This document shows positions 2,408 to 18,424 of a stretch of 24,000 nt of DNA, one piece after another (position 1 is the first letter of the stretch; each line of letters starts with the position of its first letter). The position numbers and the translations under genes were made by a program. Under the pieces are notes generated by a model that was not told the DNA's origin, did not search any database, and saw only the letters and a list, made by a program, of their open reading frames with translations. The stretch lies in assembly GCA_028285655.1 (NCBI GenBank), contig JANQOT010000210.1, positions 1 to 24,000 of the forward strand. Reading direction: 5' to 3'. This DNA comes from Gammaproteobacteria bacterium (GTDB lineage: Bacteria > Pseudomonadota > Gammaproteobacteria > UBA4575).

Positions 2408-3751
2408 ATGTCAAATATGACACCGCGAGAAATTGTCGAAGAACTTAACCGGCATATTGTCGGGCAGGATGATGCAAAACGTGCAGTTGCCATCGCGCTG
2501 CGCAATCGATGGCGCAGAATGCAATTACCGGAGGCTATGCAAGTTGAAGTATCTCCGAAAAACATTTTAATGATCGGCCCTACGGGTGTGGGTAAAACCG
2601 AAATTGCACGACGCCTGGCAAAACTGGCCAATGCGCCGTTTATAAAAGTAGAAGCTACTAAATTTACCGAGGTCGGTTACGTCGGTCGCGACGTTGAATC
2701 CATTGTGCGCGACTTGATGGACAGCGCCATTAAAATGATTCGCGAGTCCGAGGTCGCCAAAGTTAAATATCGGGCCGAAGAGGCAGCAGAAGAAAAGATT
2801 CTCGATGTATTGGTACCGCCGCCGAAAGCAGAAAGTTTCGATGCAAGCGAAAACAATAGTCAGAGTGGATTCGCCAGCGAGACGAGGCAAAAATTTCGAA
2901 AGAAATTGCGAGAAGGTGATTTAGACGAAACTGAAATCGAGATCGAGGTAAGTACGAGCCCGATGGGTGTAGAAATTATGACCCCGCCGGGCATGGAAGA
3001 TATGGCCAGCCAGTTACAGGGCATGTTTCAAAATATAGGTTCGCATCGTAAAAGCAAACGTAAACTTAAAATCAAAGACGCGTTTAAAGTTCTCACTGAC
3101 GAGGAAGCGCAAAAACTGATTAATGAAGACGAAGTCAAATCACGCGCGTTAAATCAGGTCGAACAAAACGGTATCGTTTTTCTCGATGAAATCGATAAAG
3201 TCGCAAAACGCGGCGAGCACAGTGGTACCGATGTATCAAGGGAGGGCGTGCAACGTGATTTATTGCCGCTGGTTGAAGGTTGCACCGTTTCCACCAAGTA
3301 CGGCATGATTAAAACCGACCATATTCTGTTTATTGCCTCCGGTGCTTTTCATGTATCCAAGCCGACCGATCTTATTCCCGAGTTGCAGGGGCGGTTGCCG
3401 ATCAGAGTCGAATTAAGCGCGTTGCTCGCGCAAGACTTTGTGCGAATTTTAACGGAGCCGAATGCATCGCTTACCAAGCAATACACGGCACTGCTGGCAA
3501 CAGAAGGCGTCACTCTTGAATTTTCCGAAGATGCGGTTAAACGTATTGCGCAAATTGCGTATGATGTCAATGAGCGCACCGAAAACATTGGCGCCCGTCG
3601 CTTACACACAATTATGGAACGGTTGCTGGAAACCATTTCATTCGTTGCCCCGGATCAAGACGGTGAAAATCTTTTGATTGACGAAGCCTATGTTGACGAA
3701 CATGTGTCCGAGTTAAGTAAAGACGAAGATCTGAGCCGATATATTTTATAG
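2408..3751 (+). CDS. hslU: ATP-dependent protease ATPase subunit HslU (ClpY)
   Basis: The N-terminus [40 protein letters not shown] parallels E. coli HslU MSEMTPREIV. It has a Walker A motif ([15 protein letters not shown]), a Walker B motif (IVFLDEIDK) and the C-terminal EDLSRYIL. An AAGGAA RBS lies upstream. The ATG at 2408 is preferred over the TTG at 2405. Confidence 0.95.
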
Positions 3752-13559: not shown

Positions 13560-13644
13560 TTTGTGTTTTCCTTTGCGCGCGCGCACATGATACCGTTGTC
13601 TTTTATTGACTTACAGTCCTTACTGCGACCAAATTTGTTTTGAT

Positions 13645-16338
13645 ATGGCGAATAAAACCAAACCTCTGCTTGTTCTAGTCGACGGGTCCTCTTATCTATA
13701 CCGCGCATTTCACGCGTTACCGCCGTTAACTAACCGCAACGGTCAGCCGACCGGCGCAGTGTACGGCGTTATTCGTATGGTGCGAAAATTAATTGAAGAA
13801 CAGCAGCCGGATCGGGTCGCGGTTGTTTTCGATGCCAAGGGCAAGACATTTCGCCACAAGATTTACAGCGAGTACAAAGCGACTCGCCCGCCGATGCCGG
13901 AAGATTTGCAGGTGCAAATTGAGCCATTGCACCAATTAATTCAAGCGTTGGGCATTCCACTTTTATCTGAGAAAGGAGTGGAAGCGGATGATGTCATCGG
14001 TACTTTGGCTAAACAGGCCGTAGCCGAGAATCACCGTGTGCTTATCTCTACCGGCGATAAAGACATGGCGCAGTTAGTAAACAAACAGGTAACGCTGGTA
14101 AATACCATGAACGATGCGCATATGGATGTCGCCGGCGTGAGCGAAAAATTCGGTGTTGCACCGCAACAGATTATTGATTATCTGGCGTTGATGGGAGACA
14201 AGTCGGACAATATTCCCGGTGTTCCGGGCGTTGGTCCAAAAACCGCGACTAAATGGCTGCAGCAATATAAAAATTTATCCGGCGTCATATCGCATGCGGA
14301 AGAAATAAAAGGCAAGATCGGTGAAAAGCTGCGCAATGCATTAGATCAATTACCGCTTTCCTACGAACTGGCCACCATTAAGTGCGACGTGAAACTACAT
14401 TTCGAGTTGCCCGATCTGACTATGGGTACACGCGACGATGAGTTATTGGCGAATTTATATCGCGAACTGGATTTCAATACCTGGCTGGACGAACTCGGCG
14501 AAACCAATACCGACAAACAGCCGGCACAGGAACAGCATTACCAGTCAATATTGACAAAAAAAGAATTAAAAGCATGGAGTAAAAAACTCAAAGCAGCCAA
14601 GTTGATTGCGTTTGATACCGAAACCGATAATCTGGATTACATGCAGGCGAATCTGGTCGGCATGTCGTTTGCCGTACAAGCGGGTGAAGCGGCCTATTTG
14701 CCTGTTGCGCATGACTATCCCGACGCACCCGAACAGTTAACGCTAAAAGAAGTGTTAACCGAGCTACAGCCGCTATTGGAGGATCCGGCCAAAGCCAAAG
14801 TGGGACATAACTTAAAGTACGACCAATCTGTGTTGGCCAGACACGGCGTTAACCTTGCTGGTATCCAGCACGACACCATGCTTGAATCGTATGTGCTGAA
14901 TTCAACTGCCAGCCGACACGACCTTGATACATTGTGTGAATTGCATCTGCAACAAAAAAATATAAAGTTCGAGGAGGTTGCGGGCAAAGGTGCTAAACAA
15001 ATAACGTTTAACCAGGTATCCCTGGAACAAGCCGTTGACTATGCGGCCGAAGATGCCGATATGTCGTTGCGCTTACATGAATTTTTTTATCCGCAATTAC
15101 AAAAACTGGCGGGGCAAAAAAAATTATACGAAGATATCGAAATCCCGATGGTATCGGTTTTGTCTCGTATCGAGCGTAACGGTGTATTAATCGATGCCGG
15201 CTTGTTGCACAAGCAAGGCAAGGAGCTCAACAAGAAAATTAGTAAATTACAAGAGCAGGCATATGCAGAAGTAGGGCATTCATTTAATCTCGATTCGCCC
15301 AAACAATTACAACAAATCCTGTTTGAGCAGCTTGAGTTACCGATCATCCGCAAAACTCCGAAAGGGCAACCGTCGACTGCCGAAGATGTATTGCAGGAAC
15401 TGGCGCAGGACTACGATTTTCCCAAACTCATTCTCGATTATCGTTCTTTAAGCAAACTCAAGTCGACCTATGTCGACAAGTTGCCCAAGCAAATCTGCAC
15501 AAGCACCAATCGCATACACACTTCCTATCATCAGGCGGTGGCATCGACGGGCAGGCTTTCGTCCACCGACCCGAATTTGCAAAATATTCCGATACGAACC
15601 GACGAGGGCCGCCGCATCCGGCAGGCCTTTATCGCACCCGACCAACACGTGTTGCTGGCGGCGGATTATTCTCAAATCGAGCTACGCATCATGGCGCATT
15701 TGTCGCAGGACCAACGCCTGACCGACGCCTTTGCCCAAGGGGAGGATATTCATCGTGCCACCGCGGCTGAAGTATTCGGGCTGGCGCTGGAGGATGTCGA
15801 CCAGGAACAGCGAAGAGCGGCGAAGGCGATCAATTTCGGGTTGATTTACGGGATGTCCGCGTTTGGTCTGGCAAAGCAACTGGGTATTCCCCGCCATTCT
15901 GCACAGGAGTACGTGGATCTGTATTTTGAGCGCTACCCCGGGGTTAAAGACTATATGGACCGTACTCGCAAACTCGCCCACGAACAGGGATATGTAGAAA
16001 CCTTGTTCGGTCGCAGGCTTTATCTGCCCGAAATCGAATCGCGTAATGCACAACGGCGCCAGTACGCCGAGCGTACCGCCATCAATGCACCCATGCAGGG
16101 GTCGGCCGCCGACATCATCAAATTGGCGATGATTGCAGTGGATCAGTGGATCAGTGCATCAGGCGAACCGGTAAAAATGATCATGCAGGTGCACGACGAG
16201 CTGGTGTTTGAAGTGAAGCGACCTCGAGTCGAGGCCATAATGCCCGATATCATCCGTTGCATGACCGATGCCGCAAAATTATCCGTACCGTTGGTGGTGG
16301 ATGCCAACTTCGGTGCCGACTGGGACCAGGCACACTAA
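13645..16338 (+). CDS. polA: DNA polymerase I
   Basis: It has a 5'-nuclease N-terminus (LLVLVDGSSYLYRAFHALPPL), a 3'-5' exonuclease domain (IAFDTETD) and polymerase motifs (LLAADYSQIELRIMAHLS, RRAAKAINFGLIYGMSAFGLA, QVHDELVFE). The ATG at 13645 (MANKTKPLLVLVDG) aligns with the E. coli N-terminus. The TTG at 13606 is less likely. Confidence 0.95.
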   Translation: MANKTKPLLVLVDGSSYLYRAFHALPPLTNRNGQPTGAVYGVIRMVRKLIEEQQPDRVAVVFDAKGKTFRHKIYSEYKATRPPMPEDLQVQIEPLHQLIQALGIPLLSEKGVEADDVIGTLAKQAVAENHRVLISTGDKDMAQLVNKQVTLVNTMNDAHMDVAGVSEKFGVAPQQIIDYLALMGDKSDNIPGVPGVGPKTATKWLQQYKNLSGVISHAEEIKGKIGEKLRNALDQLPLSYELATIKCDVKLHFELPDLTMGTRDDELLANLYRELDFNTWLDELGETNTDKQPAQEQHYQSILTKKELKAWSKKLKAAKLIAFDTETDNLDYMQANLVGMSFAVQAGEAAYLPVAHDYPDAPEQLTLKEVLTELQPLLEDPAKAKVGHNLKYDQSVLARHGVNLAGIQHDTMLESYVLNSTASRHDLDTLCELHLQQKNIKFEEVAGKGAKQITFNQVSLEQAVDYAAEDADMSLRLHEFFYPQLQKLAGQKKLYEDIEIPMVSVLSRIERNGVLIDAGLLHKQGKELNKKISKLQEQAYAEVGHSFNLDSPKQLQQILFEQLELPIIRKTPKGQPSTAEDVLQELAQDYDFPKLILDYRSLSKLKSTYVDKLPKQICTSTNRIHTSYHQAVASTGRLSSTDPNLQNIPIRTDEGRRIRQAFIAPDQHVLLAADYSQIELRIMAHLSQDQRLTDAFAQGEDIHRATAAEVFGLALEDVDQEQRRAAKAINFGLIYGMSAFGLAKQLGIPRHSAQEYVDLYFERYPGVKDYMDRTRKLAHEQGYVETLFGRRLYLPEIESRNAQRRQYAERTAINAPMQGSAADIIKLAMIAVDQWISASGEPVKMIMQVHDELVFEVKRPRVEAIMPDIIRCMTDAAKLSVPLVVDANFGADWDQAH

Positions 16339-16519
16339 CTTACTGATTTTTTTTCCTGATAAATCAAGGCATTGCCGCTGATCGTTTCGCTGAGTCCGTT
16401 AATCTCATGACAAAGGCTGCGCGTCGGTCCTCTCATATAATGCGCCTATCTGTTCTGCCAATAGAAGCAGCCGAGACTGCGTGGCGGACTATTTACTCAA
16501 ACAGGACGAGGATATGAAC

Positions 16520-16891
16520 ATGGCGCATAAACTAGTTACAGCCGCTATTCTCCTGGCATTGTATAGCTCTGCCGGCTTAGCGTTGGATCTAGAACGTGAG
16601 CATTTGCTGGATTTATACCACGGCATCGATGATGGAACGTCGCATGTGAGCGGTACGCAACAGGAGTGGGTTAATCTGTCGGCAGGCATCGCTCCGAATT
16701 ACCGGGATGATTCCGAAGAGATTAAATTCGCACCTCTGGGCGACCAGGAACCGACCATGAAATTTGGTGTGTTTTCTGACGAGTTGCCAGAGTCAGAAGC
16801 CAGTGACAGCGACTACAAACCCAGTTCACCGACACAGTTTGGTCAGAGCGAAGACGAACGGTACGGTGTTTATATGCAAAAACGTTTTTAA
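16520..16891 (+). CDS. Hypothetical secreted acidic protein (orphan)
   Basis: GAGGA lies 7 nt upstream of the ATG at 16520. The predicted Sec signal peptide is MAHKLVTAAILLALYSSAGLA. The mature part is D/E/S-rich with no recognisable domain. Alternative starts are at 16514 and 16481. Coding status is unproven. Confidence 0.45.
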   Translation: MAHKLVTAAILLALYSSAGLALDLEREHLLDLYHGIDDGTSHVSGTQQEWVNLSAGIAPNYRDDSEEIKFAPLGDQEPTMKFGVFSDELPESEASDSDYKPSSPTQFGQSEDERYGVYMQKRF

Positions 16892-16915
16892 CCAATACGC
16901 ATAAAATTATTTAAC

Positions 16916-16942
16916 GAACTTATTTGCTCAATTCGAGTCTGA
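16916..16942 (+). promoter_or_regulatory. Putative extracytoplasmic-stress (RpoE/AlgU-type) promoter, GAACTT-N16-TCTGA
   Basis: GAACTT at 16916-16921, a 16-nt spacer, then TCTGA at 16938-16942. This is an exact match to the AlgU/sigmaE-type consensus GAACTT-N16/17-TCTGA. It lies 25 nt downstream of the preceding stop codon and faces a terminator about 90 nt away. Confidence 0.5.
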
Positions 16943-16948
16943 ACCAAT

Positions 16949-17068
16949 GTGTGCTTCTCAAGCACGAACCGCTTCCCTCCCTGAGCGGTTGCAGACTCGG
17001 GTATTTCCCCATACCGGGTCTATTTAATTTGCCCTGGAGCTTAGTGGTGAGCTCCAGGGCTATTTTTT
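16949..17068 (+). ncRNA. Candidate small regulatory RNA (positional analogue of Spot 42 / ErsA in the polA-engB spacer)
   Basis: The approximate 5' end is inferred from the promoter.
- Hairpin 1: 16951-16965 (GTGCTT/AAGCAC).
- Hairpin 2: 16967-16990 (AACCGCT/AGCGGTT), loop UCCCUCCCUG.
- Hairpin 3: 17000-17015, loop UUCCCC.
- AU-rich linker: 17019-17030.
- 10-bp GC-rich terminator stem followed by a U tract.
No ORF of note lies inside. Confidence 0.45.
17031..17068 (+). terminator. Rho-independent terminator
   Basis: GCCCTGGAGC (17031-17040) pairs perfectly with GCTCCAGGGC (17051-17060) and is followed by TATTTTTT. The T tract overlaps the engB stop codon on the opposite strand. The minus-strand reading lacks a comparable U tract. 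Confidence 0.75.
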
Positions 17069-17675
17069 ATCCGGGTTCCAGCCACTGCGCGAGCTTGATG
17101 ATCGCTTGATCCAAACCGGCGCCGGTTGCGGCTGAAAATGTTTGCGAGCTGATTTCGATATTGGTATCTGACGGTAGCTGACTTTGCAGAGAGTGCAATT
17201 GTTTGTGCGCCTGATTGCGACTTAGTTTATCTGCCTTATTGAGCAAAATATGCACATCGCAGGAATAGTGCATACACCAGTCCAGCATTGACCAATCCAC
17301 TTCGCGTAATGGATGGCGAATATCCATTACCAGCATAATGCCTTGCAGCGAACGTCGATTGGCGAAGTAGTGTTCAAGCAGTGCTGTCCACTGCCGCTGT
17401 TTTTCTTGACTCGCTTTGGCATAACCGTAGCCCGGCAAATCCACTAAACTCGCAGTGGTTGTTAGCGAGAAAAAGTTGATCAATTGAGTGCGCCCGGGTG
17501 TTTTAGACGTTCGTGCGAGCTGTTTACGACCGCACAATCGATTCAATACGCTGGACTTGCCCGCATTCGAACGGCCGGCAAACGCCACTTCGCAACCGGT
17601 ATCGGGCGGCAGATCATCAGGCCGCGCCGCACTGGACCTGAATTCGGCCTGGGCCAGTATTTGCTTTAATGTCAT
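17067..17675 (-). CDS. engB: Ribosome biogenesis GTP-binding protein EngB (YihA/YsxC)
   Basis: It has the G1 motif FAGRSNAGKSSVLN, then DLPGYGYA and the G4 motif NKADK. It is convergent with polA and divergent from cytochrome c4, as in Pseudomonas. Confidence 0.9.
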   Translation of the reverse strand: MTLKQILAQAEFRSSAARPDDLPPDTGCEVAFAGRSNAGKSSVLNRLCGRKQLARTSKTPGRTQLINFFSLTTTASLVDLPGYGYAKASQEKQRQWTALLEHYFANRRSLQGIMLVMDIRHPLREVDWSMLDWCMHYSCDVHILLNKADKLSRNQAHKQLHSLQSQLPSDTNIEISSQTFSAATGAGLDQAIIKLAQWLEPG

Positions 17676-17794
17676 AAATTGTACGGGCTTGGTTTTGCGG
17701 CGACAGATACTTTTGTGGTATACAAAGCGCGCATTTCAAAGGACGATGAAATTAAATGCGTAACCACTTACATTATGCACTTTGGGAAGGTCAC

Positions 17795-18424
17795 ATGAAA
17801 ATTTTAATCCAGCTTACAGTTCTTCTATTCGTATTCGGCGGTCATTCGGCAATGGCGCGCGGCGATGCGGAAGCAGGGAAAACGAAATCCGCTCCTTGCG
17901 CTGCTTGCCATGGCGTTGATGGCAACAGCACGAATCCGGAATGGCCGAAACTTGCCGGCCAGGGTGCACCGTATATGGTTGAGCAATTGCGTCTGTTTAA
18001 GAACGGCGGAAGACAAAACGCGTTAATGAGCCCCATGGCGGCCGCTTTGAGTGAACAGGATATGCACGATCTCGCTGCTTATTACGCAAGCCAAACGACG
18101 ACCCCGGAAGCAGCCGATCCGGAGCTGGTGGAACTCGGTGAGTCAATTTACCGTGGCGGTATTGTCGAAAAAGGCGTGGCGGCATGTACCGGATGTCATA
18201 GTCCTACCGGTGCCGGCAACCCGGCGGCAAAATTTCCCAAGCTAAGCGGCCAGCACGCAAAATATACCGAAATCCAACTCAAGGCCTATCGGGCGGAGGA
18301 TTTGCACGGCCACCAGGAAGGGCAACGCGAAACAGCCAACGCGAGAATCATGGTCAAAGTCGCCGAGCGCTTGACCGACGATGAAATACGGGCGGTGGCA
18401 CAGTATTCGGCCGGATTACACTAG
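17795..18424 (+). CDS. cc4: Dihaem cytochrome c4
   Basis: GGAAGG RBS upstream and a signal peptide (MKILIQLTVLLFVFGGHSAMA). Two CXXCH motifs (CAACH, CTGCH) each have a downstream Met ligand region. Size is about 200 aa. The ATG at 17795 is preferred over the track start at 17756. Confidence 0.88.
   Translation: MKILIQLTVLLFVFGGHSAMARGDAEAGKTKSAPCAACHGVDGNSTNPEWPKLAGQGAPYMVEQLRLFKNGGRQNALMSPMAAALSEQDMHDLAAYYASQTTTPEAADPELVELGESIYRGGIVEKGVAACTGCHSPTGAGNPAAKFPKLSGQHAKYTEIQLKAYRAEDLHGHQEGQRETANARIMVKVAERLTDDEIRAVAQYSAGLH

Follow-up and report, generated by a model that had tools for sequence, protein, structure and literature searches.

The sRNA ErsA of Pseudomonas aeruginosa is encoded downstream of polA on the same strand, convergent with engB, and its terminator lies at the engB stop codon. 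Its dependence on sigma22 is experimental and its promoter has been mapped (Ferrara 2015, as cited in PMC7565897 and PMC13613067), and it pairs with the ribosome-binding sites (RBSs) of oprD and mlaA (PMC13613067). Another small RNA (sRNA), sX13 of Xanthomonadaceae, is always encoded downstream of polA; its C-rich loops pair with G-rich RBS motifs, repressing the mRNAs, and the paper describing it asked whether the polA locus elsewhere encodes structurally related sRNAs (PMC3771888). The family anti-hemB (Rfam RF02837) was predicted in Betaproteobacteria (Weinberg 2007, PMC1950547) and corresponds to ncS04 of Burkholderia cenocepacia J2315, which is 105 nt long, verified by Northern blot and bound by Hfq and has no known function (PMC5688073); a preprint of 2026 locates it close to hemB and resB and raises heme regulation as a speculation (10.64898/2026.09.01.748597). 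Here we describe an RNA element at positions 16948-17068 of a 24,000-nt stretch of DNA from an uncultured gammaproteobacterium of the UBA4575 lineage (contig JANQOT010000210.1, positions 1 to 24,000; hereafter the window), which lies on the polA strand in front of a convergent engB. Very probably, the element is a genuine gene for a small regulatory RNA, about 120 nt long and preceded by a promoter of the sigmaE/AlgU type. More specifically, we consider it probable that the gene encodes a trans-acting sRNA with its own extracytoplasmic function (ECF) promoter of that type, belonging to an anti-hemB-like branch and carrying anti-Shine-Dalgarno (anti-SD) loops.

The promoter consists of a sigmaE/AlgU-type -35 element, GAACTT (16916-16921, plus strand), and a -10 element, TCTGA (16938-16942), located 16 nt further 3', and both are kept in relatives. 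GAACTT-N16-TCTGA is the consensus of the RpoE/AlgU group of sigma factors. It has no second match in the window even when one mismatch is allowed, and dinucleotide shuffles gave 0.22 matches at that tolerance. At the level of the motif, it agrees with the ECF02 type (GGAACTT-N16-TCNNA) and stands about 6 nt before the putative 5' end of the RNA, which we placed to about 3 nt by the distance from the -10 element and by the onset of conservation; a scan of 16300-17800 found no sigma70-like promoter. The motif, its conservation and the precedent of ErsA point to sigmaE/AlgU dependence.

The predicted sRNA (16948-17068, plus strand; about 121 nt), defined by its fold, a covariance model and its conservation, has a minimum free energy (MFE) of -55.8 kcal/mol, in comparison with -33.7 +/- 3.3 for shuffled sequences (z = -6.7), and none of 200 shuffles was as good. 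Hairpin H1 (16950-16966; UGUGCUU-CUC-AAGCACG) is followed by H2 (16967-16990), which presents the anti-SD-like loop CCCUCCCU at 16975-16982, and by H3 (16993-17021) with the C-rich loop UUCCCC(A) at 17005-17011, the UUCCCC part spanning 17005-17010. The AU-rich linker AUUUAAUUU (17022-17030), a candidate Hfq site, is unpaired in both the MFE and the centroid structures and leads directly to a Rho-independent terminator (17031-17068), in which 17031-17043 pair with 17048-17060 around a GUGG loop to form a 13-bp stem that is followed by TATTTTTT, the tail reading UAUUUUUU. A first-pass annotation of the locus had named the exact ECF motif at 16916-16942, a perfect 10-bp terminator hairpin, two CU-rich hairpin loops and an AU-rich single strand before the terminator; the motif is present as described, the fold reproduces the loops and the unpaired linker, and the terminator stem has the outer 10 of its 13 pairs perfectly Watson–Crick. 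The statement that the interval holds no meaningful open reading frame (ORF) also holds up in substance: a program-listed 61-amino-acid ORF starting with TTG (16924-17109) overlaps the sRNA, and we rejected a coding role for it as neither frame nor length is kept and 1-nt indels occur among relatives. No reading frame is kept across the RNA in the close relatives compared.

The close relatives are seven metagenomic loci with EngB 69-85% identical to that of the window, reached by a protein search and then through the contigs encoding the matches; the genome of the window is absent from the GTDB species representatives that were searched, in which no EngB exceeded 55% identity. The gene order polA, small ORF, RNA, engB, cytochrome c4 and dsbA is found in all seven. 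The body of the RNA is 81-98% identical to that of the window, the DNA of engB 68-81% and that of the small ORF 63-90%. The -35 element is GAACTT or GAACTA in 7/7 and the -10 element is TCT-N-(A/G/T), exactly 16 nt away, while the 16-nt sequence between them drifts to 50-81% identity; conservation of the RNA then sets in sharply about 6 nt past the -10 element. A kept -35 and -10 with fixed spacing, a drifting spacer and a conserved RNA are together what one expects of an RNA gene transcribed on its own from an ECF-type promoter.

The same four-hairpin RNA is found between polA and engB, on the polA strand, in six distant gammaproteobacterial metagenome-assembled genomes (MAGs; loci L002, L006, L007, L008, L024 and L025) with EngB identities of 46-55%. 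L006 belongs to Arenicellales and the others include several unclassified lineages. Five of the six have a GGAACTT-like -35 and a TC(T/A)(A/T)(A/T) -10 that are 16 nt apart, and L024 gave no match in the promoter pattern scan; over the distant loci the -35 is mostly GAAC(T/C)(T/A). For the covariation test, we aligned 14 sequences with MAFFT, an alignment not fitted to the structure, and applied a four-helix model to it. In this model 88.8% of the cells pair, in comparison with 27-47% when the 3' partners are slid by one to three columns, and none of 500 column shuffles attained the observed covariation. Altogether 24 of the 36 base pairs have changed on both sides: 5/7 in H1, 4/8 in H2, 4/8 in H3 and 11/13 in the terminator. 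The stems vary and the loops are the most conserved part, CTCCCT (H2) and GCGG being invariant and CCCCA (H3) nearly so, with CC and A as its fully invariant columns.

A covariance model built from the 14-sequence alignment (R1) scores 118.6 bits at 16947-17067, its only sense-strand match in the window. As the model also finds one sense-strand copy per related locus, always beside engB, the RNA is not a dispersed repeat. Fold, covariation and the conservation of both the RNA and its promoter thus bear out the view of the first-pass annotation that a discrete non-coding RNA gene lies on the polA strand. The features expected of such a gene among relatives, a conserved spacer RNA, a conserved promoter and compensatory stem substitutions, were all found. 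The description of the RNA as lineage-specific fails, given its presence in the distant MAGs and its gradation into anti-hemB.

At gathering thresholds, Rfam finds nothing in the window. A permissive Rfam search of 16300-17200 (901 nt) gave anti-hemB as the sole meaningful match, at 31.6 bits (E = 2.6e-5), and the alignment covers the terminator and H2, with CCGC, the loop CCUCCCUG and GCGG; H2 is the portion that the RNA has in common with the Rfam family. Among related loci the anti-hemB scores are graded between 29.7 and 50.8 bits: L006, from a polA-engB spacer, has 50.8 bits and alone passes the threshold of 49.5 bits, and it is followed by L025 (47.4), L024 (46.2), L007 (40.6), L002 and L036 (both 36.3), L035 (33.8), the window and L029 (both 31.6), L034 (31.3) and L008 (29.7). 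Because the scores form a gradient up to the threshold, the window RNA appears to be a divergent, unannotated gammaproteobacterial branch of anti-hemB-like RNAs. Like anti-hemB, it has a CCGC/GCGG hairpin presenting a (U)CCUCCCUG loop, a variable middle part and a Rho-independent terminator. Unlike it, the described family is betaproteobacterial and defined by nearness to hemB (and ResB), being transcribed divergently from hemB; the 24-kb window contains no hemB, the neighbours being polA, the small ORF and engB. The Rfam model also lacks H1 and takes H3 as a 20-nt insertion, and the family has no published function or link to sigmaE. A blastn search of PLSDB plasmids with the best anti-hemB-like RNA, aimed at Burkholderia copies, gave no match.

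An element of about 100 nt resembling the anti-hemB-like RNAs is common to three viral contigs of IMG/VR (L161 333-428, plus strand; L114 954-1070, plus strand; L095 6909-7004, minus strand). In it, a first hairpin is followed by UCAACCAAA, by a second hairpin with CCCCG..CCUCCUCCCUGAGCGGG, and then by another hairpin and the terminator. R1 scores it at 21-29 bits, and with the Rfam model it stays below the threshold for anti-hemB. A P4-like primase/helicase is also encoded on L161. Possibly the element represents an sRNA with anti-SD loops that is carried by phages or satellites.

With ErsA, the window RNA shares the position on the polA strand, as the first-pass annotation had pointed out. 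Both are convergent with engB and have the terminator at its 3' end. They are also alike in promoter class (TGAACTT-N17-TCAGA in ErsA and GAACTT-N16-TCTGA in the window), in length (about 130 and about 121 nt) and in having C/U-rich anti-SD motifs, the terminator loop of ErsA holding CUUCCCCCUCCCCAUAC. ErsA, in contrast, has its main seed between SL1 and SL2, in a U-rich region without structure, whereas the matching segment of the window RNA is hairpin H2, supported by covariation and carrying its putative seed in the loop. For the comparison, we recovered ErsA loci by a metagenome scan in which the published Northern probe SPA0122, reverse-complemented, was the query, and the Pseudomonas loci obtained match the Rfam model Pseudomon-1/ErsA (RF01719) at 129-137 bits, which served as a positive control; RF01719 had no match in any non-Pseudomonas locus searched. 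ErsA is thus a positional and promoter-type counterpart whose homology is unproven. A CU-rich motif within the terminator loop, as in ErsA, is seen in L006 (3635-3758, minus strand; GACUCCUCCCCUUUUU) and L007 (3589-3709, minus strand; UUUUCCCCCUUUGG).

The closest architectural analogue of the window RNA is sX13, which is about 115 nt long, lies downstream of polA and has several stable hairpins and apical C-rich (CCCC) loops. It differs in being Hfq-independent, in having no reported sigmaE promoter and in its downstream neighbour, which in Xanthomonas campestris is a hypothetical gene and not a convergent engB. Spot 42 (spf) of Enterobacteria and Vibrio is similar only in its polA-yihA/engB position on the polA strand: it is CRP-repressed, acts in carbon metabolism through single-stranded seeds and embeds the small protein SpfP, whereas the window has an ECF-type motif, no sigma70-like promoter that we could find and no conserved ORF. 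The sRNAs MicA, RybB, MicL and VrrA of Enterobacteria and Vibrio are transcribed from sigmaE promoters as short terminator-ended RNAs that repress the translation of envelope proteins. The window RNA may belong to the same functional class, but it is unrelated to them in sequence, locus and seed architecture, theirs being 5' single-stranded seeds, and Rfam searches of the window gave no matches to any of the four.

These comparisons suggest how the RNA might act. Under envelope stress, the sigma factor would become active and the sRNA would accumulate, transcription starting from GAACTT-N16-TCTGA and ending at the Rho-independent terminator, which directly adjoins engB at its 3' end. At the tips of H2 and H3, the C-rich loops CCCUCCCU and UUCCCCA, respectively, would mimic the anti-SD sequence of the 16S rRNA and pair with G-rich RBSs (GGAGG or GGGG) of target mRNAs, blocking the initiation of translation. 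Hfq would probably assist at the AU-rich linker and the U-tail, by analogy with ncS04 and ErsA. The invariance of the loops, which sets them apart from the rest of the RNA across the 14 sequences, makes it plausible that they occlude SD sequences, as had been proposed for the CU-rich loops from the first pass. The sigma factor, the 5' end, the role of Hfq, the targets and the direction of regulation given here are those that we infer.

Several observations weigh against this reading. The sRNA of this uncultured gammaproteobacterium is predicted from sequence. At 31.6 bits, it misses the anti-hemB gathering score of 49.5. In 16300-17200, the Rfam models of ErsA (RF01719), Spot 42 (RF00021) and sX13 (RF02232) have no match at E <= 10; for Spot 42 this agrees with the lack of likeness noted in the first pass, and the covariance searches for Spot 42 and ErsA that had been put forward there as a check are both negative. 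The locus L007 gives a weak sX13 match of 26.2 bits. R1 does align with ErsA at full length in every Pseudomonas locus, at 12-20 bits, but with filters off the Escherichia coli spf locus (L209 411-507) used as a control reaches 16.8 bits, almost wholly through its terminator, and the reciprocal search with RF01719 is negative. We therefore rejected homology to ErsA by this route: since Spot 42 matches them, the weak R1 scores are driven by the terminator and say nothing on homology, and in general weak full-length covariance-model matches between terminator-ended sRNAs are no evidence of it. As sX13 works without Hfq, a dependence on Hfq is not assured for its analogue. Read-through from upstream could supply part of the sRNA, while leaving the conserved promoter unaccounted for. 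In a target prediction among the 22 genes of the window, the SD duplex with the DUF484 gene (start 36) has -23.5 kcal/mol in comparison with -14.5 or weaker for the other 21, its RBS GAGGGGAGCG (20-29) being the perfect 10-nt complement of CGCUUCCCUC in the 5' arm and loop of H2; this is a single unreplicated match among 22 genes and serves as a lead only.

An alternative that we regard as unlikely takes the region as the 3' untranslated region and terminator of the mRNA of the small ORF or polA, the promoter motif being unused and any small RNA arising by processing of read-through. A scan of the plus strand from 16338 to 17031 gave no terminator-like site between polA or the small ORF and the sRNA terminator, so that an mRNA from upstream must end at that terminator and, for the same reason, read-through from the small ORF probably contributes some transcripts of the sRNA region. 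Such an origin would not, however, explain why the -35, the -10 and the exact distance between them persist amid drift of the spacer and the upstream DNA, nor the sharp onset of conservation about 6 nt past the -10. Moreover, distant MAGs without the small ORF have the RNA immediately after polA, at several Porticoccaceae loci promoter and RNA stand beside engB even though an unrelated gene precedes them, and ErsA at the same position has a sigma22 promoter that is described as mapped (cited in PMC7565897). We think it similarly improbable that the sRNA is genuine but served by another ECF or a housekeeping sigma factor, with a signal other than envelope stress. The sigma factor is identified by the motif only and many ECF sigma factors share an AAC-containing -35, and ncS04 of B. 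cenocepacia did not change significantly under any condition tested, osmotic stress and low pH among them (Table 2 of PMC5688073). The match to the RpoE/AlgU-group consensus, its conservation across orders, its agreement with the motif before sigma22-dependent ErsA and the negative sigma70 scan of 16300-17800 all speak for the sigmaE type.

It is very unlikely, in our judgment, that the C-rich loops are a decoy titrating G-rich RNA or an RNA-binding protein, or that the region is a cis element for engB, as a bidirectional terminator or 3'-end antisense. The terminator does overlap the stop codon of engB, no other hairpin could end transcription of that gene, and ErsA was initially classed as antisense to engB (PMC3349714). 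Yet the overlap with engB is just 2 nt, the hairpin read on the minus strand is followed by AAAUUAAAU with no U-run, and a role as terminator does not account for the dedicated promoter, for the invariant loops or for the fact that H1-H3 are conserved and covary; the characterised analogues, ErsA and sX13, pair with mRNAs. A repeat of the repetitive extragenic palindrome (REP) or mobile kind, or a fold by chance, is hardly credible. The region is GC-rich, palindromic and intergenic, and the 14-mer CCTCCCTGAGCGGG from it occurs in many viral contigs, but nearly all of those matches are not RNA-like, with five weak ones in 80 loci, and we discarded the viral-contig scan with this 14-mer as giving mostly chance matches. 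The placement of a single sense-strand R1 copy in the window and in each related locus, always beside engB, speaks against a repeat, and the covariation and shuffle statistics oppose chance.

The sRNA is flanked upstream, on the same strand, by polA for DNA polymerase I (13606-16338; NCBIfam NF004397, 1248 bits). The polA ORF is listed from a TTG codon and is probably slightly overlong at its 5' end, as the family match begins at residue 22. Between polA and the promoter is a conserved small ORF of about 124 amino acids (16520-16891, plus strand; MAHKL...QKRF; in the program-made listing 16481-16891), with a signal-peptide-like N-terminus, an acidic middle part and the invariant C-terminus SPTQFGQSEDERYGV(Y/F)..KRF. 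It had no Pfam or NCBIfam family match. All seven close relatives have it, with 121-150 amino acids and the C-terminal SPTQFGQSEDERYGV kept, and the distant relatives do not. Because this ORF separates polA from the promoter, the true intergenic spacer holding the sRNA is only 175 nt (16892-17066). The placement in a polA-engB spacer given by the first-pass annotation is therefore right as to the polA strand and the convergence with engB and has to be amended in that, in this clade, a small conserved ORF intervenes after polA. The convergent engB/yihA (17067-17675, minus strand; TIGR03598, 228.8 bits) encodes a ribosome-biogenesis GTPase, and its stop codon (TAA on the minus strand, 17067-17069) is overlapped by the U-tail of the sRNA. 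Beyond engB lie genes for a dihaem cytochrome c and then dsbA, an arrangement that is Pseudomonas-like. At the locus L036, an extra 50 nt between the sRNA terminator and engB (3609-3660) repeats the 3' arm of the terminator (GGTGAGCTCCAGGGTCTTTTT) and looks like a partial terminator duplication.

The promoter type is more widespread than the four-hairpin RNA. Of 26 gammaproteobacterial engB loci, about 20 have the pattern GAAC(T/C)(T/A)-N15-17-TCNN(A/G/T) at a distance of 125-145 nt before a terminator located at the 3' end of engB. Porticoccaceae/SAR92 and other Cellvibrionales (L003, L009-L011, L013-L016, L018, L020-L023 and L028) have another kind of RNA, about 105 nt long, at the 3' flank of engB on the opposite strand, with the same type of promoter, TGAACTT-N15-TC(A/T)AA. 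Its body is mostly unstructured and has a conserved UUCUCCCCC motif, structural conservation being confined to the terminator, and it matched no Rfam family. At several Porticoccaceae loci the upstream gene is not polA, and engB is the constant neighbour. The constants of the locus are thus engB, the ECF-type promoter, a C-rich anti-SD motif and the terminator, and the RNA body is variable. A contig labelled as a Flavobacterium sp. MAG (L001, JBLHIH010000028.1) encodes an EngB of gammaproteobacterial type (50% identity) and beside it has a GAACTT-N16-TCATA promoter and an RNA with C-rich motifs; the contig is probably mis-binned.

If correct, our reading adds a well-supported and so far unannotated sRNA gene to an uncultured gammaproteobacterial lineage, and it answers for several more orders the question, raised with sX13, of whether sRNAs related in structure are encoded at the polA locus elsewhere. 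It would also mean that the Rfam families anti-hemB and ErsA cover a small part of a wider set of engB-adjacent RNAs with sigmaE-type promoters and C-rich anti-SD motifs, and it suggests a testable function for anti-hemB, that of an envelope-stress translational repressor rather than the recently proposed antisense regulator of heme biosynthesis. The interesting residue is a possible unification of anti-hemB, ErsA and the other engB-flank RNAs under sigmaE control. We tentatively raise, as a conjecture we hold to be rather doubtful, that the RNAs adjacent to engB or polA (anti-hemB, ErsA, the four-hairpin type, the unstructured CUCCCCC type of Porticoccaceae/SAR92 and perhaps sX13) descend from one ancient proteobacterial gene, which in its ancestral state was a sigmaE-driven anti-SD mimic. 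Were this true, the orphan anti-hemB would gain a function as an envelope-stress riboregulator, not a heme regulator, and the gene would be among the oldest conserved sRNA loci.

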